Below, piece by piece: positions 13,123 through 47,468 of a stretch of DNA of 64,000 bases. Under the pieces are notes generated by a model. That model worked only from the letters and a program-made list of their open reading frames with translations, was not told where the DNA came from and made no database searches. Each line of letters opens with the position of its first letter. Position 1 is the first letter of the stretch. The stretch comes from Polyangiales bacterium (lineage in GTDB: Bacteria > Myxococcota_A > Polyangia > Polyangiales > Polyangiaceae): assembly GCA_038231275.1 (NCBI GenBank), contig JBBRLQ010000021.1, positions 68,957-132,956 of the forward strand, in the 5' to 3' direction. Both the position numbers and the translations under genes were made by a program.

Positions 13123-13136
13123 AACCGGTGGGGCAA

Positions 13137-14342
13137 ATGATGCTTCGCAAGCTCCTGGTCTGCGCGACGTTGGTGAGCGCGTACGCGGGGGCCACGGGGT
13201 GCTCCTCTCACGCCGACAGCAGCGGCGTTGCAAGTGGAGGCGAAGCAATCAACACGAGCGACCGGCCGCCGCCCGGCGGCAAACCCCGGCCGGCCCAGCT
13301 GAGAAACCCAGACTACGGGTTCTGGGACCCCGGTCTCGTCACGGCGACTGCCCGTACCGCGTACGACGCGCAGGACATGGGGACGCGCGCGAACCCGATC
13401 GTCCCCACCGCGTGCCTTTACCCCGACACCACCGATCCGATCCTCATCAACGGGGAGGCGTGTGGGAACGTCCACACGCTGCCGCCCTTCGCGAACGCGA
13501 ACGCGTGGACCAACGCGCCGTCGTGGCCGCTGAAAGACTTCTGGGTCGTGCAGATGAACGATGAGGGGGCCTTCGACGCCTGCAACAGCGGCCCTCCCGA
13601 CGCGTCCGTCCAGCGTTCGAGTCCGGGCAACGGGATGATGGGGCTCACACTCCTCGACACCGGCGAATCGCTCACGCGAAGTCACCTCGTCCTCAACTAC
13701 ACCTTCAACGGACCGTGCGAGCAGGCCGCGCCGTTCACGCGCATCCCGTTTCTGTCGTTTGGGGCGCACAAGAGCCGCGGCAACGGCAAGCCGATCGCCG
13801 CGATCCACCCGAGCCCCGGCGTTCCGAGCCACGTGAGCTTCACGCTCAAGCTCTGGGACATCAGCTCCAACGCCACCCCGATGGCGTCCGAGCTGTGGAC
13901 GGTCTCGTCGTGGGGCGGCATCACGCGGATGATCTTCATCGCCGTCGGTCGCTCGAATCTGTCCTTCGGGCACGTGCACCGGCATTGGAACTGGCCCATC
14001 GCCCAGAGCTTCCTCGCTCCGGGAGCCGACATCGCCTACTACGACAGCGAAGAGCTCGAGGCCCGATGCCCGGGCGCGATGACGGCGACGAGGGACGGCC
14101 GGGCGGTCTCGACGTCGCTCTTCTCCACCGACGATCACGCGACGAATCTGGGGAGAGACGTCAGCTACGATCTCGACCTCGAGGCGCTCTACGGGTGTGC
14201 GAGCGCCGATGGCTCCTTCGATGCGCCGGCCCCCTCGACCGCGGACATCCCGGTCGACGGCGTGTTCTGGTCCAACGAGATCGCGGGTAGAGGGAGCCCT
14301 TCGTGGCTTTGGACAAGCGTTCACGGAATGGACGTGCACTGA
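13137..14342 (+). CDS. Hypothetical lipoprotein
   Basis: Signal peptide ending ATGC; Trp/Asn-rich globular domain. Confidence 0.8.
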   Translation: MMLRKLLVCATLVSAYAGATGCSSHADSSGVASGGEAINTSDRPPPGGKPRPAQLRNPDYGFWDPGLVTATARTAYDAQDMGTRANPIVPTACLYPDTTDPILINGEACGNVHTLPPFANANAWTNAPSWPLKDFWVVQMNDEGAFDACNSGPPDASVQRSSPGNGMMGLTLLDTGESLTRSHLVLNYTFNGPCEQAAPFTRIPFLSFGAHKSRGNGKPIAAIHPSPGVPSHVSFTLKLWDISSNATPMASELWTVSSWGGITRMIFIAVGRSNLSFGHVHRHWNWPIAQSFLAPGADIAYYDSEELEARCPGAMTATRDGRAVSTSLFSTDDHATNLGRDVSYDLDLEALYGCASADGSFDAPAPSTADIPVDGVFWSNEIAGRGSPSWLWTSVHGMDVH

Positions 14343-30616: not shown

Positions 30617-32530
<1,914 letters not shown>

Positions 32531-32574
32531 GGGGTGTGGTCCTTCCGACAAGCGGGTTGCGCGCCCCTGAGCGA

Positions 32575-32632
32575 GCAACTTCCGGGCCCCGCCGCCGATG
32601 CACTCGCGGGCGCAAAGACGCGTCGTTTGCGC
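32575..32632 (-). promoter_or_regulatory. Sigma54-type promoter with an upstream palindrome for dnaK
   Basis: Minus-strand GGGCCCGGAAGTTGC (32575-32589); near-palindrome GCGCAAAGACGCGTCGTTTGCGC (32610-32632). Confidence 0.55.
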
Positions 32633-32743: not shown

Positions 32744-34093
32744 TCAGGTCCCTCGCGTGACGGTGACCACCGCTGTGGACGACGCGTCGTCGATCGACAC
32801 GACCTTGACGACCAGCCCAGGATGCGTGCACGTCATGCCGGCCGCCCACGCCTTGTCGGCGCTGGGGCTCACGACGATCTTCGTGCGTCCGGCCTCGATG
32901 CGGTGGACGAGGACGCGCGACGCCGGCGCGCCGACGTCCCAGCCCGTGTTGCGCACGAGCTCCACAGTGTAGAAGCTCGCGCTGTCGATCGGGACCTCGA
33001 CGACGCGAATCCCCGCGACCTCCGGGTGGTTCACGGCCGCGAGCGTCACCGTCGTCGTGGTGCCTGGCGCCGGCGTGAGGATCTCGGACGTCGTGAAGGG
33101 GCTGAGCCCCAGGTTGGCTCCGAGGAACACACGCTGTCCGGCGATGAAGCCGTTGGCTCCCGGAAACCCGTCGCGGTCGCGCATGCCCGGCGCGGGGTGC
33201 GCGTAGTTAAGCTGCGCGCTCATCTCGTCCCAGGGATCGCAGTAGTCGCCGGGCGCGCCGCCGCACGCGCTCAGCGCTTCGTCCTGGGCGTGCGAGAGGC
33301 CGTACGCGTGGCCCATCTCGTGGGCCGTGAAGTCGGTGTCGAGGTGATCTTGCGCGATCGTCACCGCGGCACCCGCGGCGCCATCGTCCGCGAAGTCGAC
33401 GTTCTCGACCGCGAGCACGCGGAAGTAGCTCGTCATGTCGAGCGTCGGGTTGGCCTTCTGGGTCGCCGCCACGCATGCGTTGTAGAAGGCCGCGCGGTCG
33501 TGAATCGTCGCCTCGAGGACGGGATCGCTCCGGCTGCCCAGCGACGTCCATCCGACCACGCGTGAGCCGCTCAGATCGAGCCGGCCGTACGTCATCTCCG
33601 CGTAGTAGTCGAAGAGGTTGTCCTTCCCCGAGCCGTCGACGAGAAACAGGCGACGGGCGGCACCTTCCGCTCCCGCCGTGTCCGGCGTCTCGTCGAAGCG
33701 GCACATGAGCACGAGCTCGGGTGCCTTCATGGCATCGGGCTGCATGCATCTGGCGCCGACGTTGACGAGGCCGGGGTTGCACTGGCTGCCGCCGCACGCG
33801 AGGAGGCCGGGGGCGCCGCACGGGACGCAGACGCTGCGCGCGATGTTGTACGTGAGCCCGACGAGGCAAACGCTGGTGCAGCCGACCTCCTCCTCGCCGC
33901 ACGCGTGGCTCCCCGAGCCGCCGCAGGTGTCGGGATCGGAGTCGACGGTGCAGATGGGCTTCTTCTTCGCAGCCGACAAGCCGCGCGACGACGACGGATC
34001 GTCGCCGTGATCGCCACCGCCCGTCGTGCCTCCGCATGCGGCCATCGCGCAAATGAACAGGGAACCGAGCCTTCGCGTCGTGAGCATGAGCAT
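32744..34093 (-). CDS. Metzincin zinc metalloprotease lipoprotein (M6/M11-like) with a Cys-rich N-terminus
   Basis: HEMGHAYGLSH followed by Y.DPWDEMS Met-turn; lipobox MAAC. Confidence 0.88.
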   Translation of the reverse strand: MLMLTTRRLGSLFICAMAACGGTTGGGDHGDDPSSSRGLSAAKKKPICTVDSDPDTCGGSGSHACGEEEVGCTSVCLVGLTYNIARSVCVPCGAPGLLACGGSQCNPGLVNVGARCMQPDAMKAPELVLMCRFDETPDTAGAEGAARRLFLVDGSGKDNLFDYYAEMTYGRLDLSGSRVVGWTSLGSRSDPVLEATIHDRAAFYNACVAATQKANPTLDMTSYFRVLAVENVDFADDGAAGAAVTIAQDHLDTDFTAHEMGHAYGLSHAQDEALSACGGAPGDYCDPWDEMSAQLNYAHPAPGMRDRDGFPGANGFIAGQRVFLGANLGLSPFTTSEILTPAPGTTTTVTLAAVNHPEVAGIRVVEVPIDSASFYTVELVRNTGWDVGAPASRVLVHRIEAGRTKIVVSPSADKAWAAGMTCTHPGLVVKVVSIDDASSTAVVTVTRGT

Positions 34094-34184
34094 CCTCCGT
34101 ATGCGCGGTGCCTCCGCGGGGTCGACTGGACCGGGCCTCCGGCCTCGCGATCCTCCGCGGCACTCCCTACGCGTTCGAGGGGTG

Positions 34185-34211
34185 TTCGTCGCGAGCTCCC
34201 GGAAGCTGACA
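34185..34211 (-). promoter_or_regulatory. ECF-like promoter TGTCAG-N17-CGAA (metalloprotease)
   Basis: One of four matching intergenic or gene-end motifs around the ECF gene. Confidence 0.7.
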
Positions 34212-34264
34212 CGCCACCTTCACGCGCGGCGCCCGTGAGGTGCGCGGCGTGATACGACACGCCC

Positions 34265-34912
34265 GTGTCCACCGACGACACCGCGCCTGCTCTGCTCGAG
34301 CGCGCGCTCGCGGGAGACCGGAGCGCGATGCACGCGCTCTTCGTACGCGTCGCGCCCGTCATTCAAGCGCGCATCGCGCGCGCGCTCCTTCGTCGAAGCC
34401 GCGCGTCGGGGCGCGATCCGCGGCAGGAGCTCCGCGACATGACGCAGGAGGTCTTCGTCGCGCTCCTCGCGGACGACGGCAAGACGCTACGGGCGTGGAA
34501 GGCGGAGCGCGGCATGTCGCTCGAGAACTTCGTCGGCCTCGTCGCCGAACGGCAGGTCGCGTCGATCATGCGCACCGGCAAGCGGAGCCCTTGGAAAGAG
34601 GATCCCGTCGTCGAGGAGGACCTCGCGCTCCACGCCGGCGCGAGCGACGGGGAGGGGATGGCGGCGTTGTCGCGCGACACGCTCCAGGCGCTCGTCGACC
34701 GGCTGCGGGAGGAGCTCACGCCGAAGATGCTGCGGCTGTTTTATGCGCTGTGGGTGGAGGAGCAGCCGGTCGCCCAAATATGTGAAACGATGGAGATGCA
34801 GCCCGACGCGGTCTACGCGGCCCGTTCGCGCATCGCCAAACGGGCCCGCGCCATCGCGGTCGAGCTCGAACGAGAAATGTCAGATTCCGGGCGGCGCCCG
34901 ACGAACTCCTAA
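34265..34912 (+). CDS. ECF RNA polymerase sigma factor
   Basis: DMTQEVFVAL region 2; region 4 VAQIC...DAVYAARSRI; no region 3. Confidence 0.88.
   Translation: MSTDDTAPALLERALAGDRSAMHALFVRVAPVIQARIARALLRRSRASGRDPRQELRDMTQEVFVALLADDGKTLRAWKAERGMSLENFVGLVAERQVASIMRTGKRSPWKEDPVVEEDLALHAGASDGEGMAALSRDTLQALVDRLREELTPKMLRLFYALWVEEQPVAQICETMEMQPDAVYAARSRIAKRARAIAVELEREMSDSGRRPTNS
34878..34905 (+). promoter_or_regulatory. ECF-like promoter TGTCAG-N18-CGAA inside the sigma gene 3' end, facing the anti-sigma gene
   Basis: TGTCAGATTCCGGG...CGACGAA closely matches the 34185-34211 copy. Confidence 0.65.
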
Positions 34913-34921
34913 GGTGACTGG

Positions 34922-35641
34922 ATGGCGGAGGATCCCCTCATGAAAGAGCTCGGCCGCATCGCGCGGGAGGAGGACTCCGCGCGGGACGACGCGGAGGCGC
35001 GCGAGCTCTTGCGCCCGTTCAGCCCGGAGGAGCTCCGGGGAATGGCGGAGAGCGCGACCAAGGCTGTGCTCGGAGAAGGGCCCGAGGCCGCCGTCGTTCG
35101 CCCGGCGGAGGCGCGCGCGCGTGCACGGTGGGCTGGCGCGGGCCGGCCGCTGACGATCGGCGCGTTCGTCGTCGCGGCCGCGGCGGCCCTCTTCTTCTGG
35201 ATGCGGACCGCTCCCCCCGCGATGCCGGACGGCGCGCTTGCGAGCTACGAGCTCGTGGTGGAAGGGGGCGAGCGTCCTACGCGCGCGGGCGATCCGGCGA
35301 GCGTGACCGAGCCAGTGCGCGTGGCGCGCGACGGGCGGCTCGTCATCGTCGCGCGGCCCGCCAAGCTGGCGACGGGGGTGGGCGCGGTCGTCTGGATCGC
35401 GCGCGGCGAGTCCCTGGCGGCGTGGAACGTCGCTCCGCAAGTGTCGGCCGAGGGGGCCGTGCGCGTCGAGGCGGGCCCGAGCGCCATCGCGCAGCTGCCG
35501 GAGGGCTCGAGTCGGCTCGTGGTCTTCGTCGGGGCGCCGAGCGCGCTGCCGTCGAGCGAAGGGGCCGCGCGCGACGTGCGGCGTGCGCCGCCCGCGGGCG
35601 TGCGCGTGCTCGAGCGCGCCCTCGACGTCGCGCCGCGCTGA
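34922..35641 (+). CDS. Putative anti-sigma factor (single TM, extracytoplasmic beta domain)
   Basis: Directly downstream of the ECF gene; short cytoplasmic N-terminus; TM segment IGAFVVAAAAALFFW. Confidence 0.7.
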   Translation: MAEDPLMKELGRIAREEDSARDDAEARELLRPFSPEELRGMAESATKAVLGEGPEAAVVRPAEARARARWAGAGRPLTIGAFVVAAAAALFFWMRTAPPAMPDGALASYELVVEGGERPTRAGDPASVTEPVRVARDGRLVIVARPAKLATGVGAVVWIARGESLAAWNVAPQVSAEGAVRVEAGPSAIAQLPEGSSRLVVFVGAPSALPSSEGAARDVRRAPPAGVRVLERALDVAPR

Positions 35642-35653
35642 CCCGCCGATCCG

Positions 35654-38401
35654 TCAACGGACCAGGACGCGAAACGCGCCGTAGTCGGCGACGCCTTGCT
35701 TCCACGCGTCGATCTGCGCCTCGCGGAGCGCTTCGGCGACGTCTCCATCCGGCCGCAGATGCCGGTACAGAGCCGCCGCGAGGATCGCCGACGCCGCGTC
35801 GTCCACTGTGCGCGTCGCCGCCACCACCGCGCCCGCGCCGGCCACGAGGAAGGCCTGCGCGAGCCCCAGGCCTTCGGCTTGCGCCTCGCCCGACGTCCGC
35901 GCGGTCTCGCACCCGAGGAGCACCACGCCCGCCGGCGCGTGGGGAAGCGCGAGGATGTCGGCCACCGTGAGCTCGGAGTGATCGGCGAGAGGAAGCGCGC
36001 TCTGCCACCCATCGCGACCGGCGAACTTTCCGTGACCGGCGTAGTGGAAGAGGCGCGCGCCCGCCAGCGCGGACCTCACGGCCGCGCCGGTCGCCGACGC
36101 TCCCGTGAGCACGGAGACACGCGTCTCGCCCGCGTCGCGGAGCTGCGCGGTGACCGCGTCGACCTCGCGCCGCGCGAACGGCAGATCCGACGTGGGATCG
36201 CCCACGACGAGGACGCCCACCGAGACAGGATCGGCGGCCGGTGCCGCGCCGCGATCGGTGGGGTAGACGACGGCCATCTTGGCGACGAGCGGCGCCCCGT
36301 CCCACGGGAGCGCGTGCACGTCGATCGCGCGCGCGGCCCCGAGCGCCACGACGGCGAGGCGCGGGGCCGCGGCGAGCTCGACGCGAAACGGCGAGAGGAT
36401 CGCGCGGGTAAGGACCTCCGGCGACGCCGACGGATCGACCGCGCCGAGCTGCACGGCCCGTGTCTTGCGGCCCGCGGTGAGTAGCCCGAGGAGGCCGTGC
36501 TCGGTCGGGACGAGCGCGAGGGTGACGTCGCGCGTCGCGGAGGTGCGCCGGATCTTGTTCGGTTCGACGAGGACGCGCGCCAACGCCCCGTCGAGCGCCG
36601 CACGGGCCGCCTCTGCGCGGGCCGCACGCTTCGCGCCGCTCGCCGCGAGCGACTCCTTCGAGAGCTTCCAGTCGTCCGTCCCCTCCCGCTCGAGCGCCTC
36701 GCGCTCACGGCGGTAGGCGCCGACGGCGTCGAGCCACTCGTCGGCGGCGGACGGGGGAAGGGCCGCGAGGCGGTGCCGGCTCTCGAGCGCGTCGAGCACG
36801 CGCGATCGAATCCGAACGACCTCCCGCGCGGCGTCCTCCGGTCGCCTCATCGCGACGAGGAGCTCCACGCGGCGCGTATCCGCCCGCTCTTGCTCGCTGG
36901 CGAAGCTCTCGCGCCCCTCGCCGAGCGGAATGCTCACGAGCATGCGCTCGGTGAGCGCGGCCGCTTGCTCGAGCGCCGCGAGCGCGTCGGCGTCTCGGTG
37001 AAGCGTGGAGAGGGCGAGCGCGCGGCCGTCGAGGGCGAGCCGCAAGAACCCGTCGTCGCCAATGCCCCGCGCCATCGCCGCCATCTCGTCCCACGACGCG
37101 AGCGCGTCGCGTGCTCGCCCGCGCGCGAGCTCCACCTCGGCCCTGGTCCGCAGGCGATCGATCGTCACCTCCACCCTCGTGTGCGGCGCCGCGGCGACGG
37201 ACGCCCGCAGGTGCTTCTCCGCCTCGTCGACGCGACCCGCGCGAAGCTCGGCGCGAGCCATGTACGCCTCCAGGTTCGCGATACGGGCGGGATCGTACGA
37301 CGCTGGACAGCTCGTTCGGTACGTGACGAGCGCCTTCTCCAGCCACCCGCGCGCGTCCGCGGCGGCGAGGCCCTGCGCGTGCGTGCCGACGGCGCCGCGC
37401 AGACCGAGGAGGTCCGCCAGATCGCAGGGATCCATGTCCGCTTCGAACGCGCGCCGCTGGCCGTCGAGAATGGCGAGCGCGTCGTCGACGCGGCCGAGAT
37501 CGTCGAGCATGGAGGCCTCGAGCTGCTGCGTCATCCGCTCGAGGCGCACGAGGCCGAGCCGCGCGGTCTCCTCTTCGGCGAGGCGGCACTCGGCGAGCGC
37601 CTCGCGCGACTGGGCGGACATCCCCAGGATGGCGGCCGTGTAGTACCGGACGCGCGCCACACCGTCGGGGTAGTGAGCGGACAGCGCCGCTGCGCGCGCG
37701 AGGACGCGCCGGGCTTCGACCAGTCGCACTCGCGCGAGGAGCGAGAAGACGAGCGCGAACGCGTCGTCCGCGGCCTCGGAGGCGCGCCCCGCCGCGTCGC
37801 CGAGCCGAATCGACTCGTCGAACAATCGATCGACGTCGTCGTCGCGCCCGTCCGCCAGCGCGATCCGCGCGAGCGCTCCGAGGACCAGCCCGCCCTCACC
37901 GGCAGCGCGCGCCCGGGGCAGGTCCGCCTCGAGCCGGGCGCGCGCCTCGGCGAGCTTGCCCGCCGCGCGCAGCTCCGCCGCCTCGCGCACCGAAGCAAGC
38001 TTCGCGGGCGCGGGCGCGAGGGCGAGCGAGAACGCGCGACCGATCGCGGTGACCTCCAGCTTCCGGCCGCCTGCCGGCGCCAAGGTGATCAGCGCGCCTC
38101 CCCGAACGTCGATGCGCGACCGCACCTCCGCGGGCGCGCCGTCGATGGTGAGCGCGGGCGTGTCGGGCGGTGCGGGTACCCAGACGCGAAGCGCTCCGCC
38201 GGGCGCCATTTCGCAGACGCCCTCCTTGGTGACGGCCGCACATCCGGAGAAGCGCGCGCCCTCAATCGGGGGAAGCGGCGGCGCGGCGTCGGCGACCGCG
38301 CGCGGCTTCTCGCGGGCGCAACCAAGCGCAAGCGCGACCGCGAGGGCGCCCACGACGAGCAGCGCCCGACGCGTACGCTCCCGACCCGCTCCGGCGCGCA
38401 T
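35654..38401 (-). CDS. TPR-CHAT (caspase-like, clan CD) protease with a lipoprotein signal
   Basis: FHYAGHG and LLGCET catalytic dyad motifs; GLAQAFLVAGA; TPR-like helices; N-terminal LALGC. Confidence 0.9.
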   Translation of the reverse strand: MRAGAGRERTRRALLVVGALAVALALGCAREKPRAVADAAPPLPPIEGARFSGCAAVTKEGVCEMAPGGALRVWVPAPPDTPALTIDGAPAEVRSRIDVRGGALITLAPAGGRKLEVTAIGRAFSLALAPAPAKLASVREAAELRAAGKLAEARARLEADLPRARAAGEGGLVLGALARIALADGRDDDVDRLFDESIRLGDAAGRASEAADDAFALVFSLLARVRLVEARRVLARAAALSAHYPDGVARVRYYTAAILGMSAQSREALAECRLAEEETARLGLVRLERMTQQLEASMLDDLGRVDDALAILDGQRRAFEADMDPCDLADLLGLRGAVGTHAQGLAAADARGWLEKALVTYRTSCPASYDPARIANLEAYMARAELRAGRVDEAEKHLRASVAAAPHTRVEVTIDRLRTRAEVELARGRARDALASWDEMAAMARGIGDDGFLRLALDGRALALSTLHRDADALAALEQAAALTERMLVSIPLGEGRESFASEQERADTRRVELLVAMRRPEDAAREVVRIRSRVLDALESRHRLAALPPSAADEWLDAVGAYRREREALEREGTDDWKLSKESLAASGAKRAARAEAARAALDGALARVLVEPNKIRRTSATRDVTLALVPTEHGLLGLLTAGRKTRAVQLGAVDPSASPEVLTRAILSPFRVELAAAPRLAVVALGAARAIDVHALPWDGAPLVAKMAVVYPTDRGAAPAADPVSVGVLVVGDPTSDLPFARREVDAVTAQLRDAGETRVSVLTGASATGAAVRSALAGARLFHYAGHGKFAGRDGWQSALPLADHSELTVADILALPHAPAGVVLLGCETARTSGEAQAEGLGLAQAFLVAGAGAVVAATRTVDDAASAILAAALYRHLRPDGDVAEALREAQIDAWKQGVADYGAFRVLVR

Positions 38402-38468
38402 CGCCTGCGGTCATGCCACGCGCATCGCAGGGCCGCAACGCGACGCGCCCCGCCTCTCCGTCAATCCA

Positions 38469-39092
38469 TCAAAGGCGGCAGGTGTCGCAGCCGCGCCCGC
38501 CGGTCGTGCCCGTCGGCAAGATCACGATGCACTGGTACAAATTGACGATGTACGCGATCTTCGTGTACTGGAGCGTCCCGCAAAACACCGAGCTGTCGAT
38601 GCGCGAGCCGGGCGGGGCGAAGGCCGAGCCGTCGGCGTTTCGCGCGTTCTCGTAGGCGTAGGTGCACACGAGATCGCTGGACACGAACGGGTTCGGTGCA
38701 TCGTAGTAGGCGTGCCGCTGATCCGCGCCGCCGTACGGCGCCACGGGGTAGCGGGTCGCGTACACCCCTGCGCCCGGCTCGCCCGGCGTCCAGAGTCCGC
38801 CGCCGGCGAGCGAAATGTCGGGACACGCCGCGAGGTACGACGGCACGCCAATCTGGTAACCGAGCTCGGTGTTGCAGATGGTGTTCGGCAACGTCGCGCA
38901 CACGAGCGGGGGCGGAGGCGGCGGTGAGCAGCTCGGATCGAAGACCGTGCACCTCCTCTTCAGCTGCACGCCCTCCCCCGGCAACGTGCTCGACGGCGGA
39001 TCCTGAGGAGTGCCCGAGCAGCCCGTCGCGAGGGCGGTGGCGAACGAGATCACGGCGAGGGACGTCGCGAGGGATGCGCGGAGGGTCGTCAT
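38469..39092 (-). CDS. Small Cys-rich lipoprotein
   Basis: Lipobox ATGC; GGAGG on the plus strand is not an RBS, so the start is assigned from the signal peptide; C-terminal GCDTC. Confidence 0.75.
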   Translation of the reverse strand: MTTLRASLATSLAVISFATALATGCSGTPQDPPSSTLPGEGVQLKRRCTVFDPSCSPPPPPPLVCATLPNTICNTELGYQIGVPSYLAACPDISLAGGGLWTPGEPGAGVYATRYPVAPYGGADQRHAYYDAPNPFVSSDLVCTYAYENARNADGSAFAPPGSRIDSSVFCGTLQYTKIAYIVNLYQCIVILPTGTTGGRGCDTCRL

Positions 39093-39158
39093 GGGAGGTT
39101 CCTGGGCAGGGGGAGCAAAGGGGAGGGGGCGGCGGGGCTTCGTGGTGGCGAAGAGGAC

Positions 39159-39185
39159 TACGCGACGACGGCCGGCGTTCTGACA
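39159..39185 (-). promoter_or_regulatory. ECF-like promoter TGTCAG-N17-CGTA (Cys-rich lipoprotein and possibly CHAT)
   Basis: Motif shared with 34185, 34878 and 43632. Confidence 0.7.
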
Positions 39186-39251
39186 CCGAATTCGTAGGGC
39201 GTCAATTTAGGTAGCTCGAGCGCGTTCAAGTCGTCGTCATCCCGCGGAAAA

Positions 39252-41138
39252 TCACCCCCGACGAAGCTGATCGAGAACGAACCGGATGCGAGCAGCGTCC
39301 TCGGGCCGGGTCGCTCGCGCCATCAAGAACTCGAGCACGCGCCCCACCTCTGGCCCCACGGCGGCGTGCTTTCCGACGAAGGACACGAGCGAGCCATCCA
39401 GCGCCGGGCTGGTTCCCCCCGAGATCACGGCTGCCGAAATGCGCGACAGCTCCTCCGCCGTCACCGGCTGCGCGTCCAGCGAGCGCAGCGCCGCCTCCTC
39501 GACCTCGGGCGCCGCATCGCGGATCAGATCCGTGAGCGCGCGCCGAACCTCCGGCTCCTTGAACCGCCGCAGCGCCCCCGCCGCGCTCGCCCGCGTGCGC
39601 GTTTCCTTGCTGTGCGCGTACGCCAGAATCCGCTGCCCATCGCCGGGCGCCGCCGCCGCCCCGAGCGCGGTCAAGAGCGCGCCTGTCTCCTTGGGCGTCC
39701 TGGCGGTGGCGAGGTCGGCGCGCAAGCGGCCAGCCATCGCGTCCGCGCGCGCGTCTTCACCTTCGCGCCGTGCCGCGAACGACACCGCCCCTGCCGTGTA
39801 CGCGGACGCGAAGCGCGCCTCGTCGCCGCGTGTCCGCGCCGACGCGTATGCCCGATCGACGAAGGCCAGGGTCTCCGGCGTCGGCGCCGGCACGAACGAG
39901 AGGCGCTGCAAAAGCGTGGGATACGCCGGACTCGTCCGCCCCGCCTCCGAGGCCAGCGCCTCGCACATGGCCGACTGCGCCTCCTTCGTCGACGCCGACG
40001 CGAGCAGATCCATCACGAGCCGGCGCTGCGCGTCGTTCGTCTTCGCCGCGGTGAAGAGCGGCACGAGCTTCTTCGCCAGCGCCGAATCCTGCAGGAGGAG
40101 CCCGGACGCGCGCGTGACGAAGCCCTCCTCGAGGGTCTTGCCGTCGTACGACCCCAACGTCCGCTCCGCGTCCTCGAACGAGAGATCACCGACGCGCTGC
40201 GCCAGCAGCTCGCGCTCAGGGACCTCACCGCGCCGTAGCGCGCCGGCCGCGCGCGCCTCGAGCGACGGATCGAGCGTCAGCGTCGTGGGTGCCTCGAAGG
40301 TGCTCACCTCGACGAGATCGAGGCGGAAGGTGGAGACCACACGAAGCGCGGGCTCGGCGCCCTTCTTCGCGGCGACGACGAGCGTCTCGCGATCGTCGAT
40401 GCGCGAGAGGTGCCCCTTCGGATCGAGCGCGATCGCCGCGTGTGCGTCGACGTCGCGCGCGCAACCCTCGCAGCCGATGAGCGCGTACAGCGCGTCGTAG
40501 CTGGTTCGCCGCCGCGTCATGGCAAGCGGGCCGTCCATCGAGTACGCGACGCGCGCCACTCCGGCCGGCGTCGTCTCCGTGCCGCTCCATTCGCGCGGGC
40601 CGTCCGCCGGCACCACGACGGTCATCGCGGCCACGAGCGTCTGCGTCACGCTCTTCCAGAGCTCGGGCGCCGTCGCCTTGTACAAGATGCGCTCGGGCTT
40701 GCCCGTCGGCGCGAGCTCGACGAACGCCTCCTGGTCCGCGAAGATCGCGCGCGCGGCGGCGTCGTCCCCCAGGAGATCGCCGCCGAGGATCTTCCACGCG
40801 TGCTCGTCGACTCGCGGCAGCGTCAGGGCAAGCACGGCGCGGTCGCCGTTCGTCCCGAGCGCCCGGAGCTCCAGCGCGCCCGCGAGTGCGATCGCCGAGG
40901 CGAGCTCCCCGTTCTCGCCGAGCCCCGGCGTCCTGGCCGACGTCGTGGACGCGAGGTCGAACGTGTAGCGGTAGCGGGTGCCGGTAGCCCACGCCAGGTG
41001 AGCGCGCGGGGCTTCGGTCTCGGTGGACCCGCTCGACGCGGCGTCCAGTGCGGTCGGGCCGCGCCGCGAAACGGCGACGGCCCCGAGGAGGAGGAGTGCT
41101 CCGAGCGCGGCGGCGCCGGCGAGGGTCCTGCGCTTCAC
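39252..41138 (-). CDS. Exported protein with a beta domain plus HEAT-like helical domain, resembling the vitellogenin/MTP N-terminal lipid-transport module
   Basis: N-terminal TM/signal; GTRYRY, ETTPAGVARVAY; helical repeats; GTG start overlaps the upstream stop. Confidence 0.7.
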   Translation of the reverse strand: MKRRTLAGAAALGALLLLGAVAVSRRGPTALDAASSGSTETEAPRAHLAWATGTRYRYTFDLASTTSARTPGLGENGELASAIALAGALELRALGTNGDRAVLALTLPRVDEHAWKILGGDLLGDDAAARAIFADQEAFVELAPTGKPERILYKATAPELWKSVTQTLVAAMTVVVPADGPREWSGTETTPAGVARVAYSMDGPLAMTRRRTSYDALYALIGCEGCARDVDAHAAIALDPKGHLSRIDDRETLVVAAKKGAEPALRVVSTFRLDLVEVSTFEAPTTLTLDPSLEARAAGALRRGEVPERELLAQRVGDLSFEDAERTLGSYDGKTLEEGFVTRASGLLLQDSALAKKLVPLFTAAKTNDAQRRLVMDLLASASTKEAQSAMCEALASEAGRTSPAYPTLLQRLSFVPAPTPETLAFVDRAYASARTRGDEARFASAYTAGAVSFAARREGEDARADAMAGRLRADLATARTPKETGALLTALGAAAAPGDGQRILAYAHSKETRTRASAAGALRRFKEPEVRRALTDLIRDAAPEVEEAALRSLDAQPVTAEELSRISAAVISGGTSPALDGSLVSFVGKHAAVGPEVGRVLEFLMARATRPEDAARIRFVLDQLRRG

Positions 41139-43552
41139 GGCTTCGGCACCACGTTGGGGGGCTGCGCCGTCGCGAGCGCGATGACCGGATAGCCCTTGTC
41201 GAGCGGCTTCCACAGATCGTGATCGTAGGAGACGCCGTCCCAGGAGAAGATCGTGTGCTCGATACGGTTGCAGCCGAAGATGTAACAGATCTCCGCGTAG
41301 GCCTTCACGTCGCCCTTGAGGAGAGTCAGGCTGAGGTGGGCGTTGTTCGTGAGGTGCAAGGCGAGCGTCTCGGTCGGCACCCCCTCGTCGTCGTAGAACG
41401 TCTCGGTCTTGAGCTTCACGCCGGCGGTGAACGGCAGTCGAACCTCGGCCAGAGTGACGTTGCCCTCGATGCCCGCTTCGGCCCCGAGCCCGGCAAATTC
41501 GCCGCCGATGGCGCCCCACGCGCGGCCCGTCGCCCTCGCATACGGCGACAGCGTACCGCTCAGCGCGACCTCGGGCGACAGCGCGCAGAGGTCGGTGCTC
41601 TGCGGGGCCTTCGCCGTCACCGTCGCGTCGAAGCCGACCGCGAGCTCCGCGCTCGCCCCCACCGTCACGGGCACGAAGCCGACGAAGAGCGTCTGGCTGT
41701 AGCTCGGCCCGCCCGACGCGGGCGGCGGCGCGAGGTGGAAGTCTCCGACGGTCGTGTCGCCATAGACCGGCACGTCGAGGATCGTGAGCGAAGCGTCGGT
41801 GACGAGATCGGGGTTACCCGCTGCGCCGGCCGACGCGTGGATGCTCGCCGTGGCGACGCCGATCGACTGCTTCAGGATGTGGACGGTGACCCCGACGTCG
41901 CCCCAAAGCTCCGGCTGCATGTTGCACACGGGCTGCGCGTCGGTCGACGCATGATCCATGTGCACGCCCCAGCGCATTTGATAGTTGTATTCTGCACTGA
42001 ACCAATCGGGGTCCCCGAGGCCGTTGCTGCCGACCTTCGAGTCGCCGACGGTGCCTTTGTCGATCCAGGGCAGATCCTTCACGACCTTGGTGCGCTGGTC
42101 CTCGGCGTATCCGAGCCACACCTCGAGCGCGTCCCAGTCGCTGCGCGCGTCGGCGCGGGTGGCGGAGGCGTTCATCGTCGGGAACTGCGAGACGAAGTTG
42201 TCGCCGGTGTCGCGCATGCAATGGGTGAAGTCGGCCTCGCGCTTGACGTCGGCGAGGTGGAGGTACTTGACGAGCGACTTGGGCGACCAGTCGCAGGAGA
42301 TGCCCGCCGGATCGAGGCACCCGTGGTCGATGCTCCCGTCGCGCGGGCTCGTGTGGCGCCACTCGCGGACGAGCGCCAGCATGAGCGCGTCCGTGTAGAA
42401 GAAGAACTCGAGGGTCTCGGCGGTGATCGGCGGCCGGTAGTTGCCGGGGCACGCCGGATCGGGCGGGACGTCGGGCATGCGCAGGTGTCCGCACGAGTCG
42501 TAGCGGGAGGGGTGGAGGTACTGCTCCGCCTTCACACCGAGCTTCGTGAGCTCGCCCTGGAACCGCGCGAGCGCCTGGGTGAAGGAGATCGAGCGGAGCT
42601 CGATCTTGCGGTACTCGGCCAGCGTGAGCGCGAGCGGCGCTTGCATCTCGCGCATCTCGAGATCGTGCGCCACGCCGTCGACGAAGCTGTAGTCCTCGGC
42701 GAACCCCGCGGCGAAGGCGGTCATGAGGGCCGTCGTCTCGTCGAGGCCGTAGAACCGGGCCATTCGCTCGTTGAGCCCCTGCACGATCATCGACGCGAAG
42801 AACGGATTCTTCTTCACGGTCTGCGCGACCATGATCTCGCCGAGCTGAGGGCGGAACTGGAAGGGCAGCGGAGAGCGGGCGCCGTCGCGCGAAAACAATG
42901 TCGGCTTGTCCATCCCCGGCAAGCCGTCGCCCGCCATCGCGAAGAGCTCGCCGAGGCAGAGGTAGTCCGACTTGCAGCTCGCGGCCGCCTCTTCGAAGCG
43001 CGTGTAGTCGTAGTACTTGTCGAAGACGTAGTCCTCGCACGACGCGATGGTCGTCGTCGTCGGGTGGCGCGAGCCGAGCTCGGGGTGGCGGCCGACGATA
43101 TCGAGGCCCGCGAAGGTCCCTGGCAGGAGGGCGTTCTGCGCGATGCTGGCATACGAGAGATCCGTGTTCAGCGCGCCGGTGCGCGACAGGGACGAGTCGT
43201 CGAACGGCTCTTGCGCGGCGTCGATGAGGATTCCGGGGTGGCGCGGCATCGTCGCCGGCAAGATGACCTGGTCGAGGCTCGCGCACGTCTGCTGGTTGGG
43301 CCCGCACCCCTGGTCAGCGGCCCACTGCCCGTGAAACGAGTTGGCGACGACGTCGCGGCACGCCGTCTCGTTGATCCGCTTGCAAAAATTGAGCGGCGAG
43401 GCGCGCATCTCCTTTTGGCACTCGGTCAGCGTCGGCGCTGGACAGTGGCGCGGAGGACCGGGCGGCAGCGGCGGCCCGATCTGGGCGCTCGCGGCGGCGC
43501 TGGCCGAGAGGATCGCCGAGACGGCAAGACAAAACGCGACACGTCGAGACAT
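41135..43552 (-). CDS. Secreted Cys-containing protein with a long C-terminal amphipathic beta-sheet
   Basis: Signal peptide; C-terminal third made of long alternating strands (e.g. VPVTVGASAELAVGFDATVTA). Confidence 0.8.
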   Translation of the reverse strand: MSRRVAFCLAVSAILSASAAASAQIGPPLPPGPPRHCPAPTLTECQKEMRASPLNFCKRINETACRDVVANSFHGQWAADQGCGPNQQTCASLDQVILPATMPRHPGILIDAAQEPFDDSSLSRTGALNTDLSYASIAQNALLPGTFAGLDIVGRHPELGSRHPTTTTIASCEDYVFDKYYDYTRFEEAAASCKSDYLCLGELFAMAGDGLPGMDKPTLFSRDGARSPLPFQFRPQLGEIMVAQTVKKNPFFASMIVQGLNERMARFYGLDETTALMTAFAAGFAEDYSFVDGVAHDLEMREMQAPLALTLAEYRKIELRSISFTQALARFQGELTKLGVKAEQYLHPSRYDSCGHLRMPDVPPDPACPGNYRPPITAETLEFFFYTDALMLALVREWRHTSPRDGSIDHGCLDPAGISCDWSPKSLVKYLHLADVKREADFTHCMRDTGDNFVSQFPTMNASATRADARSDWDALEVWLGYAEDQRTKVVKDLPWIDKGTVGDSKVGSNGLGDPDWFSAEYNYQMRWGVHMDHASTDAQPVCNMQPELWGDVGVTVHILKQSIGVATASIHASAGAAGNPDLVTDASLTILDVPVYGDTTVGDFHLAPPPASGGPSYSQTLFVGFVPVTVGASAELAVGFDATVTAKAPQSTDLCALSPEVALSGTLSPYARATGRAWGAIGGEFAGLGAEAGIEGNVTLAEVRLPFTAGVKLKTETFYDDEGVPTETLALHLTNNAHLSLTLLKGDVKAYAEICYIFGCNRIEHTIFSWDGVSYDHDLWKPLDKGYPVIALATAQPPNVVPKP

Positions 43553-43631
43553 GGACGGCTCCTTCGTGAACGGAGCGGGCGCGAAGCGGGTCGGGCCCGC
43601 GCGCGCGCTCGCCGGGTGGGTGCAAGAGGGC

Positions 43632-43658
43632 TACGCGGCGACCCGCGCGAACCTGACA
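43632..43658 (-). promoter_or_regulatory. ECF-like promoter TGTCAG-N17-CGTA (43552/41138 operon)
   Basis: Fourth copy of the motif, correctly oriented upstream of ATG 43552. Confidence 0.7.
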
Positions 43659-43685: not shown

Positions 43686-45008
43686 TTACTCCACGGCGTA
43701 CACGTGGACCGCGAACCCGGCGAACGCATCTTGGAACACGCCGGAGGTCACCGGCACCGTGCGCCCTTCGCCGAGCACGGTAACCTTCGACGCCGGGCCC
43801 CGCTGGACGGTGAAGCTTGCGGTGCCGGCCGTCGTGCCCATCGACACCGCGAGCACGTAGAGCGTCCCGCCGCGTCGCTTCACGAGCGCGTCCACTTTGC
43901 CTCCGCCGGTGACCGCGACCTTCACCGCGTTCGTGATCGGCGGCGTGTCGAGCGCCGGCGCCAGCTCGCGGATCTGCGCGTTGATCGCCGACACTGCGGA
44001 CTTCATCGCCGGATCGTCGAGCAGCGCGTGATCGTCCTCGGTCGGCGTGAACTGGTGCACGAAATATCCGATGCCCATCGACCCGTGCACGATCGACATC
44101 CAGACCTCGGCCTTCACTTGCTCGGGCGTCGGCTTGCCGTTCGCCTGGCCGATGCGCGTGCACTCGATCCAGTTGTAGACGGGCTTCTTGTGGTCGACCC
44201 ACTGCCCGAGGCGATCGACGCCGAGCGGTACGTCGAGGAGGTCGAGCCCGTCGTTCACCGGGTAGAGATCGAACGAGACGATGTCGGCGCCTTTGCAGTA
44301 GTCGGGGTAGTCGGCGATGCCCGAGCAGCTGCCGCGCCCGACGTAACCGGTGTTGCCGACGCCCTGGCCGAGGTTCAGAAAGATCGGGCGCGTCGTGTCG
44401 GACTTTTGCATCGCCGTGTACTTCGACTGGATGGTGGCGGCGGAGATGCACGGTCCGTAGCCGCCTTTGCCATCGGGTTGCGCGTTGTCGGGCTCGTCGG
44501 TCTGCGCCCAGCCGTCGAGCGTCTTGTTGGCGACGCCGAGGGTCGCGGCGCTCTGGTCGACCAGGACATGCAGGCCCGCTTGCGCGATCGTCGACAGATC
44601 CGCGGCGGTCGGCGTGTTCCACAGACCAACGTAGGTGTTGACGCCGATCGCGGCGTACTGCGCCGCGAGACTCGGGTCCTGGAGCCAGACGCCGATGGGG
44701 AAGAACGACGGGTCGGCCGGCGGCCCGTTCGTGAAGCGCGCGTAGTACGCGGAGCCTCCGGCCCACGGTCCGTACTCGTCGCCGTAGGCGTTCGCGGCGT
44801 CCGGCGTCGCGCTCGCGTCTGAGCCCCCATCTGCGCCCGGCGGCGACGCGTCGTCGCCTGGCAACGCACCCCGCGCGTCGGTGTCCGCGCTGGCGTCGGC
44901 GCGTGCACCGCCGGTTGGGCCGAGCGTCGTGTCGTCGCCGGCGGAGCATGCCGCGAGGAGTAGCAGCGACACGTAGATCGCAGCGGTAGCGCGGCTCGAG
45001 CGAATCAT
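43686..45008 (-). CDS. Glycoside hydrolase-like (TIM barrel) lipoprotein
   Basis: Lipobox LAAC; FFPIGVW, DEPDN, DIVSFDLYP, VHGSMGIGYF. Confidence 0.7.
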   Translation of the reverse strand: MIRSSRATAAIYVSLLLLAACSAGDDTTLGPTGGARADASADTDARGALPGDDASPPGADGGSDASATPDAANAYGDEYGPWAGGSAYYARFTNGPPADPSFFPIGVWLQDPSLAAQYAAIGVNTYVGLWNTPTAADLSTIAQAGLHVLVDQSAATLGVANKTLDGWAQTDEPDNAQPDGKGGYGPCISAATIQSKYTAMQKSDTTRPIFLNLGQGVGNTGYVGRGSCSGIADYPDYCKGADIVSFDLYPVNDGLDLLDVPLGVDRLGQWVDHKKPVYNWIECTRIGQANGKPTPEQVKAEVWMSIVHGSMGIGYFVHQFTPTEDDHALLDDPAMKSAVSAINAQIRELAPALDTPPITNAVKVAVTGGGKVDALVKRRGGTLYVLAVSMGTTAGTASFTVQRGPASKVTVLGEGRTVPVTSGVFQDAFAGFAVHVYAVE

Positions 45009-45021
45009 GACGCGATGGGGT

Positions 45022-45117
45022 GCAAGCGCAGCGCCCGCCCGCGGCCTCGCATTTCCGAGGATTTGTGCGAACGGCGGGGTGCTCGATCCCCCTCGCGCGA
45101 GGGGGATGGTTCCCCCT
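45022..45117 (-). promoter_or_regulatory. Sigma54-type promoter with two AGGGGGAT-N2-ATCCCCCT-like sites
   Basis: Minus-strand GGGCGCTGCGCTTGC (45022-45036); sites at 45076-45093 and 45100-45117. Confidence 0.7.
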
Positions 45118-45174
45118 GGGCCCACGCGGCGGCGGAAGCGCCCTCTTTACGCCCCGATGGTATGCTCCTCGGCC

Positions 45175-46113
45175 GTGGAGATCGCTCGCGACAGGACCGC
45201 GCACCTCCTGTCGGCGGGGATCACGGCGTTCGCGCTCACCTTCGCCGCGCCGGCCGTCGCCGCGCCCACCGACGAGGCCGACGCGCTCTTCGAAGAGGGC
45301 CGGCGCCTCATGGACGAGGGGAAGCTGCCGGACGCGTGCGCCAAGCTCGAACGGAGCTTTCAGCTCGCGCCGCGCCTCGGCACGATGCTGAACCTCGGCG
45401 CGTGCACCGAGCGGCGCGGTCAGCTCGCGCGCGCGATCGCCCTGTACGAGCGCGCGGCGACCCTCGCGCGCCAGACGGGCCGCGCCGATCGCGAGGCGGT
45501 GGCGCGCGAGTACGCCGCCGCGCTTGAGGCCAAGGTCGGCAAGCTCGTCGTCGTCCTCGAGGAGCCCGCCGCCGATCAGCTCACGCAGATCGACGGCGAG
45601 ACGATCTCCACGCGGGGGGGCCTCGTGCCGCTCGACCCCGGGCGGCGCCGCCTCGTCGCGCGCGCGGCCGGTCGCGCGCCGTTCGAGAAGGTGATCGACG
45701 TGACCGTCGGGGCGACGATCACCGTGAAAATTCCGAGGCTCGCCGCGCTGCCTCCGGCGGAGGACGCGCCTCGCGCGAGCAGCACGCGGACGTGGGTGGT
45801 CGCGTCCGGCGTCGCGCTCACGGTCGTCGGGGCGTCGGTCGGGACGTACTTCGGCCTCCGCGCGCGCTCGAAGCACGACGCGTACACCGCGCAGTGCGAC
45901 GCGCGCGGCTGCACGCCGGATGGACTGACGCTGAGCGAGGACGCGCGGACGGCGGGGAACGTCTCGACCGTCGCGTTCGCGGTCTCCGGCGCCGCCCTCG
46001 CGGGCACGATCGTCGCGCTCGTCCTCTTGCCGGGCCCCCACGCGCAGCCCGCGCGCGTGACGGCGCGCGTCGTGCCGTCGCTCGGCGGGCTATCGCTCGC
46101 GGGGAGCTTCTGA
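45175..46113 (+). CDS. TPR + PEGA-like envelope protein
   Basis: ADALFEEG...GTMLNLGAC; paralogue of 10618-11619; ends GSF. Confidence 0.8.
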   Translation: MEIARDRTAHLLSAGITAFALTFAAPAVAAPTDEADALFEEGRRLMDEGKLPDACAKLERSFQLAPRLGTMLNLGACTERRGQLARAIALYERAATLARQTGRADREAVAREYAAALEAKVGKLVVVLEEPAADQLTQIDGETISTRGGLVPLDPGRRRLVARAAGRAPFEKVIDVTVGATITVKIPRLAALPPAEDAPRASSTRTWVVASGVALTVVGASVGTYFGLRARSKHDAYTAQCDARGCTPDGLTLSEDARTAGNVSTVAFAVSGAALAGTIVALVLLPGPHAQPARVTARVVPSLGGLSLAGSF

Positions 46114-46115
46114 TC

Positions 46116-47468
46116 GTGGCGGCCGACAAGGACACCGAGACGGCGACGTCCGCGATCGGGCACTGGGTCTCTCCCGACGGCGCGGTCCTCGTCGTGCTCG
46201 ACGGCGACGCCGTGCAGCGCGAGGTCAAGATCCCCGGCCGCATCGGCGGCGTCCTCAAGATCGGCAAGGCGCCCGACAACCAGCTCGTTTTGCCGGACGC
46301 CACCGTCTCGCGTTACCACCTCGAGATCGTCCGCGGCGACCACGGCATCGTCGTACGCGATCTCGGGAGCCGCAACGGCACGTTCATCGGCGGCGCGCGC
46401 ATCAAGGAGGCGACCGTCGAGCCGGGCTCCCTCCTCAAGATCGGCGACGTGAGCCTGCTCGTGCGCGTGGACCTCGCCGGAGCCATCGTCCCGCCGAGCC
46501 CTCACACGCGCTTCGGCTACGCGCACGGCCGCAGCATGCTCATGCGCCGCCTCTTCGGCCTCCTCGAGCGCGTCGCGCCGAGCGAGGCGTCCGTGCTCCT
46601 CATCGGCGAGACGGGGACCGGCAAGGACATCCTCGCGCGTTCGCTCCACGACGCGAGCCCCCGCGCGCGCGGCCCCATGGAGGTCGTCGACTGCAGCGCC
46701 ATCGCCAGCGGTGTCATCGAGAGCGAGCTCTTCGGGCACGAGCGCGGCGCGTTCACCGGCGCCGTGAGCGAGCACGAGGGGGCGTTCGAGCGCGCGCGCG
46801 GCGGCACGGTCTTCCTCGACGAGATCGGTGAGCTGCCTCTCGACGTTCAGCCCAAGCTCCTCCGCGTCCTCGAGTCGCGTCAGATCCGCCGCGTGGGCGG
46901 CAAGAAGACGATCGACGTGGACGTCCGCATCGTGTCGGCGACCACCCGCGATCTCGCAGAAGAAGCGCGCGCCGGGCGGTTCCGACAAGACCTGTATTTT
47001 CGGCTCGCCGTCGTCGTCGCGCACGTGCCCGCGCTTCGCGAGCGGACGGAGGACGTCGACGTCATCGCCGAGCAGATGCTGACCGGCTTCGCGCCGGGGC
47101 TGACGCTCGATCCCCAGGCGCTCGCGCAGCTGCGCTCGTACGCATGGCCGGGCAACGCGCGCGAGCTGCGAAACGTGCTGGAGCGCGCGGCGATCCTCGC
47201 GCAGGCGTCCGGCGCGCGCTCGCTCCAGGGCTTCGACCTCGGGCAGCCCGCGCCGACCGGCGGACCGCTGCACGAGTTCGTGGAGGGCGAGTCGTACGGC
47301 GACGCGCGCGCCCGCGTGGAGCTCGCCTTCGAGCGCCAGTTCGTCACCTGGATCCTCGGCCTCCACCGCGGCAACATCGCAGCGGCCGCGCGCGCGGCGA
47401 AGATGGATCGAAAGTACCTGGGAGACCTCGCGCGCAAGCACGGCCTCTCGCCGACGGGCGGGCGCTGA
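46116..47468 (+). CDS. FHA-domain sigma54-dependent activator (bEBP)
   Basis: FHA motif SRYH...[32 protein letters not shown]. Confidence 0.95.

Follow-up and report, generated by a model that had tools for sequence, protein, structure and literature searches.

A candidate split form of a DdvA-type envelope signalling switch in Myxococcota: an ECF sigma factor, a single-pass anti-sigma factor and a predicted TPR-CHAT lipoprotein

The window considered here is a stretch of 64,000 nucleotides from the genome of a Polyangiales bacterium (GCA_038231275.1, genome G000 in our set; 9.28 Mb, 69% G+C), taken from contig JBBRLQ010000021.1. It carries adjoining genes for a predicted extracytoplasmic function (ECF) sigma factor (P0001), a putative single-pass anti-sigma factor (P0002) and a lipoprotein that joins tetratricopeptide repeats (TPR) to a caspase-like CHAT domain (P0003). 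The anti-sigma gene begins 10 nucleotides past the stop codon of the sigma gene on the same strand, and the CHAT gene is convergent with it. Genes in the window were called from the G+C content at codon positions. The three genes and their parts are as follows.

34265-34912, + strand: ECF-type sigma factor P0001, 215 amino acids
34922-35641, + strand: predicted single-pass anti-sigma factor P0002, 239 amino acids
35147-35209, + strand: transmembrane helix of the anti-sigma factor, residues 76-96 (AlphaFold2 model)
35264-35314, + strand: juxtamembrane loop GG[ED][QR]xxR[SGA], residues 115-131, candidate cleavage site, with R121 at 35282-35284
35246-35629, + strand: Ig-like beta-sandwich ectodomain of the anti-sigma factor, residues 109-236 (AlphaFold2 model)
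35654-38401, - strand: TPR-CHAT lipoprotein P0003, 915 amino acids
35696-36415, - strand: CHAT domain, with His790 at 36032-36034 and Cys831 at 35909-35911
38318-38401, - strand: lipoprotein signal peptide ending LALGC, with lipobox Cys28 at 38318-38320

Three proteins of one locus

An earlier note, made from the DNA letters alone, had read these genes as an ECF sigma factor, an anti-sigma factor with a single membrane span and a convergent TPR-CHAT protein with an intact His/Cys dyad and a lipoprotein signal, and all three readings have held up. The sigma factor required family-level evidence. By itself, P0001 matches no Pfam sigma domain and has sub-threshold NCBIfam matches (ShbA model, 5e-9; TIGR02937, 3.9e-5), and it can be aligned over its full length to the solved ECF sigma factor ShbA (9isn_F, 2.4e-8), a member of ECF40s2 (PMC12019637). 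Among 42 members of its family, 28 match Sigma70_r2 and 15 match Sigma70_r4_2, so the region 2 and region 4 domains of an ECF (group IV) sigma factor of about 200 residues are present at the family level. The family profile matches ShbA 9isn_F at 3.4e-15 over positions 11-202. Because of these family Pfam matches and the ShbA profile match, P0001 can be taken on sequence evidence as a real, divergent ECF sigma factor. The gene directly downstream in the window encodes its predicted anti-sigma partner, which is another mark of ECF factors.

The CHAT domain of P0003 is recognized by PF12770 (E 2.1e-31; residues 663-902; 109.9 bits, cut-off 24), the sole Pfam match above cut-off among the locus proteins. 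The predicted catalytic residues H790 and C831 are invariant in all 28 aligned homologues. Export signals, assessed by inspection and by regular expression, comprise a lipobox in 25 of these homologues and, in the other 3, a hydrophobic signal or anchor. In 24 the signal precedes a GC..C cysteine pair. Given the invariant dyad and the export signals of the homologues, P0003 is predicted to be exported and presumably active, which agrees with the extracytoplasmic location that the earlier note had assumed. It is also the only CHAT-domain gene found in the source genome, which likewise has one sigma factor of the P0001 family. When the CHAT-family profile was compared with solved chains, the best natural match was DdvA (8rot_B, E 1.2e-13), extending across the CHAT domain, and the CHAT proteins of craspase followed at 3e-4 to 7e-4. 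The single P0003 sequence gave no DdvA match in the PDB. Similarity to separase is marginal (Pfam C50 at 1e-4, below cut-off; PDB E 0.73).

The AlphaFold2 model of P0002 has a mean predicted local distance difference test score (pLDDT) of 84 and places three N-terminal helices (residues 5-18, 24-29 and 35-50) before the one transmembrane helix, with the beta-sandwich beyond the membrane modelled at pLDDT 95-98. Residues 1-75 contain no Cys and no His, and hence no zinc motif. The fold of the ectodomain yields generic Ig-like matches only, both with Foldseek (E about 2e-3) and with VIA (best Z 8.6, root-mean-square deviation 3.1, 108 residues aligned); these searches barely cover the cytoplasmic part. 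Single-sequence PDB searches with P0002 gave nothing useful, and profile-profile comparison found no similarity between the anti-sigma factor and the CHAT protein (probability 0.2). No Pfam family matches P0002 or any of its 38 aligned homologues, and the NCBIfam model 'antisigma' gives a weak match in 1 of the 38. Even so, the family is large: its profile retrieved 3490 cluster representatives at E<=1e-3 from 1.84 billion proteins, 989 of them at <=1e-30, and almost all of the best 150 matches are 195-425 residues long.

The earlier note had pointed to the region GGERPTRAG as a candidate cleavage site, and conservation singles out the same place. The loop at residues 116-131 is the sole low-confidence part of the P0002 ectodomain, with block pLDDT values of 79 and 60. 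Within it lies R121, about 25 residues outside the membrane and invariant in all 38 aligned anti-sigma factors. Across a wider set of 153 sequences, Y109 is kept in 149, G116 in 131, R121 in 148 and P146 in 152, and the conserved motif reads LPxYxLxVxGG[ED][QR]xxR[SGA].

Linkage, gene fusions and a shared promoter motif

Synteny was assessed in 51 sigma loci, all from one phylum, consisting of the window and 50 fetched loci: the 10 best sigma matches, 20 of 29 places with a P0003-like match and 20 of 24 places that seemed to have none (the 4 left out had the sigma gene about 2 kb or less from a contig end). These loci were analysed by six-frame hidden Markov model (HMM) searches, with a CHAT homologue called at >=300 bits, and because they are related and belong to a single phylum, the counts over them are not independent. 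An anti-sigma gene lies downstream of the sigma gene on the same strand in 42 of the 51, and a CHAT homologue is nearby in 33. The CHAT gene occurs in four arrangements: operonic with the sigma and anti-sigma genes (17/51), convergent as in the window (6/51), divergent (5/51), or upstream on the same strand (5/51). At the 10 best sigma matches it adjoins in 7, and of the remaining 3, two are on contigs of <4 kb. Together with four Sorangium loci retrieved from public genomes with the CHAT protein as query, where sigma, anti-sigma and CHAT genes share one strand in 4/4, these counts support the conserved trio that the earlier note had expected.

Forty of the fetched loci come from an even sampling of the phylum. 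The sigma family is found in 35 of 401 genomes, at 53 places outside the source genome, and a P0003-like match lies within 6 kb of the sigma gene at 29 of the 53. Single-protein searches miss some of these neighbours; the HMMs recovered a CHAT gene at 5 of the 20 loci that such a search had called CHAT-less. The other genes near the sigma factor in related loci encode S8 subtilases, beta-lactamase-fold/BTRD1 proteins, 5'-nucleotidases, SLT proteins and S11 proteins. These enzyme genes vary from locus to locus, and the CHAT gene is the constant neighbour.

Two related variants of the arrangement can be recorded here. In three loci (L047, L050 and L052, from G151, G141 and G097) the five-gene form comprises CHAT, an S8 subtilase, the sigma factor, the anti-sigma factor and a protein combining BTRD1 with a beta-lactamase fold; BTRD1 is a polyglycine-hydrolase-like repeat, and the arrangement recalls the ECF54 context of actinobacteria. 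Three loci of one family (L034, L036 and L038, from G156, G413 and G271) have the sigma gene, an overlapping CHAT gene and a gene for a protein of about 628 residues, followed at about 5 kb by an anti-sigma-like gene, which amounts to the same parts with other wiring.

Further evidence for cooperation comes from natural fusions. Longer proteins were searched with the anti-sigma profile, and among the 8000 candidates scored at least two are fusions; because scoring stopped at 8000, there may be more. Both are metagenomic proteins (P0005, 1087 residues; P0006, 1084 residues) that carry PF12770, and both run in the order anti-sigma N-terminal motif, transmembrane segment, ectodomain with a GEQxTR loop, GC..C pair, TPR, and CHAT domain with His and Cys. 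Residues 238-713 of P0006 align to residues 34-520 of P0003 (E 9e-15), so the anti-sigma part stands where the lipoprotein signal would be. A single-sequence PDB search with P0006 gave nothing useful. As classical gene-fusion evidence, these proteins indicate that the anti-sigma factor and the CHAT protein cooperate in the periplasm. Because linkage persists in several gene orders, fusions exist, the predicted compartment is shared and the dyad is invariant, a functional partnership between the CHAT protein and the anti-sigma factor is likely.

A putative regulon is suggested by a promoter motif. The window has two copies of the string TGTCAG-N15-CGCGTAG, at 39158-39185 (-) and 43631-43658 (-), against an expectation of 0.04, and none of 100 shuffles gave two. 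The full and variant sites are listed below.

39155-39187, - strand: promoter motif GTCAGA-N17-CGTA before the Cys-rich lipoprotein gene, 30.3 bits
43628-43660, - strand: second full motif, before the p805-p628 operon, 30.3 bits
34181-34213, - strand: weak variant before the metalloprotease gene, with the same -35 and a -10 of CGACGAAC, 10.8 bits
34876-34908, + strand: variant TGTCAGA..CGACGAAC within the 3' end of the sigma gene, 13 nucleotides before the anti-sigma start, 9.8 bits

Both full sites are kept in a genome of the same genus, G001 (L013 14838-14863 and 19310-19335). The earlier note had assigned one promoter motif to four flanking genes for exported proteins. All four products (metalloprotease, Cys-rich lipoprotein, p628 and p805) do have a signal or lipoprotein-like N-terminus by eye, but the two full sites cover three genes, namely the Cys-rich lipoprotein gene and the p805-p628 pair, and the protease gene has the weak variant (10.8 versus 30.3 bits). 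Elsewhere in the source genome there is no further exact copy, and one near-copy at C14:141346-141378 (+) (L063 2847-2879) precedes the gene of a lipoprotein with a Tectonin domain (1.9e-9), which is likely an unlinked regulon member. Past these three top sites, a position weight matrix scan of the source genome found 199 sites at >=13 bits versus 93 in a shuffled genome, so that further members could not be separated from background.

The motif is conserved in other genera, where it is enriched before anti-sigma and sigma genes. In the 50 loci and the window, GTCAG-N17-CGTA occurs 19 times, where base composition predicts about 5. A core matrix built from 14 sites matches within 110 nucleotides before 14 of 37 anti-sigma starts (0.14 expected; 4 of the 14 are training sites) and before 5 of 41 sigma genes (0.48 expected). 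It matches before none of 27 CHAT genes, and no full site precedes the window's own sigma gene. The sites upstream of the anti-sigma genes occupy the final codons of the sigma gene. There the -35 is read as Ser-Glu/Asp through TCA-GAx in 14 of the 42 sigma genes, and 14 of the 26 dipeptides of this kind are spelled so. TCA is a rare choice, used by nine window genes for 4 of their 267 Ser codons, and in two loci (L030 and L031) the -10 falls past the sigma stop codon. The rare TCA of the -35 and the -10 placed after the stop therefore argue for selection on the DNA and for a putative sigma-dependent promoter of the anti-sigma gene embedded in the sigma coding sequence.

The CHAT gene of the window might also belong to the regulon. 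It begins 67 nucleotides downstream of the Cys-rich lipoprotein gene, and no terminator-like site was found between 38469 and 38401. Read-through into CHAT from the promoter near 39159, as the earlier note had suggested, is therefore possible. In another locus (L020), two promoter motifs at 6303-6328 (-) and 6355-6380 (+) face away from each other 27 nucleotides apart, adjoining the CHAT gene, and one of them precedes the gene for a lipoprotein that shows a weak MspA-like match.

Known relatives, a proposed mechanism and its rivals

Several characterized systems offer hints regarding how the three proteins might work together. In the RseA/DegS/RseP pathway, a single-pass anti-sigma factor is first cut in the periplasm at site 1, and the short stub is then attacked by an M50 protease at site 2. 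The site-1 enzyme proposed here differs in being a caspase-fold cysteine protease lipoprotein, whereas DegS is a PDZ serine protease; genes for Peptidase_M50 (RseP-type) proteins are present in the source genome. In craspase (type III-E), the TPR-CHAT protein Csx29 reportedly acts with gRAMP/Cas7-11, Csx30, Csx31 and RpoE, and cleavage of a sigma-binding protein is said to be tied to an ECF-type sigma factor. That system shares with the window a TPR-CHAT protease tied to an ECF-type sigma factor, with a weak profile match to the Csx29-type chains, but it is cytoplasmic, RNA-guided and CRISPR-linked, whereas the window protease carries an export signal and has no cas gene nearby. Among 14 neighbouring proteins scanned with PADLOC, 13 gave no defence match and one gave a generic sigma-54 AAA+ match, in keeping with the CRISPR-independent character that the earlier note had claimed.

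The closest relative is the DdvS/DdvA pair of Myxococcus xanthus (PDB 8ROT; PMC11506125; PMC6061681). DdvA is a zinc transmembrane anti-sigma factor with a fused periplasmic TPR-CHAT part, described by its authors as the only characterized one of its kind (PMC11506125). In 2024 they proposed, as a model still unproven, that the CHAT part cuts the linker proximal to the membrane as a site-1 protease and that RseP follows; self-cleavage, by their account, could not be shown, with protease and substrate on one chain and the signal unknown (PMC11506125). The same report describes the bulky TPR-CHAT part as blocking RseP, truncated DdvA as being degraded, and DdvA-DdvS as controlling CBASS and CRISPR-Cas genes (PMC11506125). 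In our searches for TPR-CHAT together with a sigma factor and the periplasm, DdvA was the only system found in the literature. The window resembles it in having an ECF sigma factor, a single-pass anti-sigma factor and a predicted periplasmic TPR-CHAT part, the P0003 family having a His/Cys dyad homologous to that of DdvA, and in belonging to the same phylum with the same proposed logic. The differences are also clear. The TPR-CHAT part is a separate lipoprotein in the window and fused in DdvA (fused relatives, P0005 and P0006, do exist); P0002 has three helices in place of a zinc (CHCC) motif and an Ig-like ectodomain in place of a flexible linker and helical scaffold; and the predicted targets are exported proteins rather than CBASS or CRISPR genes. 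A DdvS-like identity for the sigma factor was considered and rejected, since the 8ROT sigma chain is not among the matches of the sigma-family profile at E<=0.01 and the nearest solved relative of the family is ShbA.

ECF54 of Actinobacteria offers a second parallel, here compared by published description and gene context only. Its sigma genes have subtilase, carboxypeptidase-regulatory-like and TPR-CHAT genes as conserved neighbours, and proteolytic control has been proposed; as those surveys describe the group, it is confined to Actinobacteria, has no anti-sigma factor and uses the promoter GTATCAG/CTCC (PMC7826278; PMC8999054). Related loci in our set similarly carry S8 subtilases (L047, L050 and L052) or a CarboxypepD_reg protein (L042), and the -35 GTATCAG resembles GTGTCAG here. 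The phylum is different, however, a transmembrane anti-sigma gene follows the sigma gene in most of our loci, and the -10 is CTCC there versus GCGTA here. A third parallel is separase, in which a TPR-like superhelix accompanies a CHAT/caspase fold that cuts after Arg in an acidic context (PMC11506125). The loop motif [ED][QR]xxR likewise ends in Arg, but separase is eukaryotic and cytoplasmic or nuclear, and the acidic residue lies at P4 there versus P5 here.

In view of these precedents, the claim of a new system in the earlier note does not stand. DdvA-DdvS already joins an anti-sigma factor to TPR-CHAT with a proposed cleavage (PMC11506125), and ECF54 is already CHAT-linked (PMC7826278; PMC8999054). 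Because DdvA is the closest solved CHAT protein and the same mechanism was proposed for it in 2024, the window is better viewed as a candidate split variant. We found no published case of a separate CHAT lipoprotein with an ECF sigma factor and an anti-sigma factor, and ECF surveys may list CHAT groups of Myxococcota.

The reading we prefer, at a probability of about 0.5, is that the module is a three-protein envelope signalling switch of Myxococcota and a version of the DdvA-type anti-sigma factor divided over two polypeptides. Through its three-helix cytoplasmic domain, the anti-sigma factor would hold the ECF sigma factor at the inner membrane, with the Ig-like domain facing the periplasm and the TPR-CHAT lipoprotein exported to the same compartment. 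The TPR part would sense a periplasmic cue and activate the caspase-like His790/Cys831 site, and the activated CHAT domain would cut the juxtamembrane loop of the anti-sigma factor, most likely after Arg121 of GG[ED][QR]xxR. An RseP-type site-2 protease would then act on the resulting stub of about 25 periplasmic residues, which is comparable in size to the truncated forms of DdvA that RseP accepted, and the sigma factor would be released. Freed sigma factor would read the GTCAGA-N17-CGTA promoters of the Cys-rich lipoprotein gene (whose transcript would run on into CHAT), the p805-p628 operon and the Tectonin lipoprotein gene. It might also read the weaker variants before the metalloprotease and anti-sigma genes, the latter providing negative feedback. 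That CHAT cuts the anti-sigma factor at the R121 loop is an inference, at even odds or slightly less.

A number of observations weigh against this reading. R121 may have a structural role, and the loop may be just poorly modelled by AlphaFold. No CHAT homologue (>=300 bits) lies near 18 of the 51 sigma loci (two of the 18 on contigs under 4 kb, and one with a partial match at a contig end), and the anti-sigma factors of sigma loci without a nearby CHAT gene retain Y109, R121 and P146. In G115, which is 97% complete, a sigma/anti-sigma pair occurs with zero CHAT-domain matches, so the arginine is not kept for CHAT alone. The CHAT-less loci are scattered on the sigma tree with 9 changes, a number as low in 142 of 500 label shuffles; this scatter excludes a single CHAT-less clade and points to repeated loss or relocation. 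The distance matrices of sigma, anti-sigma and CHAT proteins correlate at r 0.48-0.53, which 0 of 2000 permutations reached, but these correlations are confounded because shared ancestry alone could give them. Since the sigma factor is not DdvS-like and the anti-sigma factor has no zinc motif, the link to DdvA rests on the CHAT domain and the architecture. In addition, the CHAT gene appears downstream of sigma-dependent promoters, which also fits a role as an output.

The last point leads to the strongest competitor, a possibility we rate at well under even odds, in which CHAT is a sigma-induced product that acts on envelope, prey or cargo proteins, for instance by maturing co-regulated exoproteins, and another protease inactivates the anti-sigma factor. 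The position of CHAT just behind a promoter-bearing lipoprotein gene with no intervening terminator-like site would suit an output, as would the 17 operonic loci with CHAT below the internal promoter, the pairs that keep R121 with no nearby CHAT gene (or, in G115, no CHAT-domain gene at all) and the secreted enzymes encoded around related loci. The same competitor must also accommodate fusions that join a whole TPR-CHAT to an anti-sigma ectodomain, as in DdvA, a CHAT gene that stays beside the sigma gene while the enzyme genes change, and the absence of the motif directly upstream of CHAT in all 27 loci. Fusions demonstrate association rather than cleavage, and a further alternative, which seems unlikely, builds on this: the CHAT lipoprotein might be a co-sensor that shields the anti-sigma ectodomain from site-2 proteolysis while the target of its own protease is a foreign protein or one of the envelope, with release of the lipoprotein starting the sigma response. 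The block that the DdvA TPR-CHAT part is reported to place on RseP, and the degradation of truncated DdvA (PMC11506125), are precedents for such shielding, and TPR arrays are protein-binding modules. On the other hand, an invariant dyad and an invariant arginine in an exposed loop are most simply an enzyme and its site, and pairs without CHAT would have no protector.

Two other explanations carry little weight. Control of an anti-phage defence island would follow the example of DdvA-DdvS, the closest characterized relative, which governs CBASS and CRISPR-Cas (PMC11506125), but the neighbours scanned with PADLOC were negative save for the generic AAA+ match and the predicted targets are exported, making this very improbable. 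Chance adjacency of three genes with no functional link is hardly credible: the window CHAT gene is convergent and not co-transcribed with the sigma gene, yet the genes stay linked in different families of the phylum, in four orders, and in all four Sorangium loci, and the fusions exist.

A bolder reading is also conceivable. We tentatively suggest, at odds rather below those of the switch itself, that an exported caspase-like site-1 protease governs the large anti-sigma family and cuts between the arginine and the [SGA] position of GG[ED][QR]xxR[SGA], and that the promoter at the sigma end, spelled in codons that are otherwise avoided, induces the inhibitor and, in operonic loci, the activator, and not the sigma factor. 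Should both the cut in the loop and the sigma-end promoter prove true, the module would be the first tractable two-protein model of the DdvA-type mechanism, itself still unproven. With the enzyme and its presumed substrate encoded separately, the site-1 cut could be tested by means of point mutants and co-expression. Newly defined in either case are an anti-sigma family of thousands without a Pfam model, its promoter motif and a putative coding-sequence promoter. The output of the module probably consists of secreted hydrolases and lipoproteins of myxobacteria.

Flanking genes and minor observations

The remaining genes around the module are listed below.

30617-32578, - strand: dnaK, full-length
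32744-34093, - strand: lipoprotein with an HEMGH zinc-metalloprotease motif, 449 amino acids
38469-39092, - strand: Cys-rich lipoprotein, 207 amino acids
39252-41138, - strand: p628, 628 amino acids
41135-43552, - strand: p805, exported, 805 amino acids

The HEMGH lipoprotein, divergent from the sigma gene, has its motif at residue 258 and matches Reprolysin_5 (6.3e-4) and an M6 domain (1.4e-3), both below cut-off. The Cys-rich lipoprotein, a putative regulon member, belongs to no family in Pfam or NCBIfam and has an ortholog with 47% identity at the same position in G001. The earlier note had described p628 and p805 as a lipid-transfer-like pair, a label for which p628 provides a lead only. 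This protein has an N-terminal hydrophobic anchor and HEAT repeats (HEAT_2 7.9e-5, below cut-off), and its protein-atlas similarity is 0.98 to clusters with HEAT and Vitellogenin_N ('lipoprotein amino-terminal region') that are common in Myxococcota, with 10 of the 10 best named matches from the same family. No recognizable family could be assigned to p805 in Pfam or NCBIfam, its protein-atlas matches are below 0.9, and its ortholog in G001 is 76% identical. The two genes overlap through a GTGA start/stop.

Two + strand open reading frames (ORFs) in this region, 39286-40500 and 40519-40968, were rejected as genes; by codon-position G+C content they are antisense shadows of a - strand gene. Farther along, a TPR ORF at 45007-46113 (+) and an ORF with FHA and sigma-54 activator parts at 45528-47468 (+) overlap by about 590 nucleotides in different frames, and one start is probably miscalled. 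The dnaK gene lies two genes away from the sigma gene. In G022 (L015), about 2.4 kb separate a paralogous sigma/anti-sigma pair with no CHAT gene from a truncated Hsp70-like gene at 12819-14234 (471 amino acids; HSP70 1.1e-116). Either proximity is possibly a coincidence.

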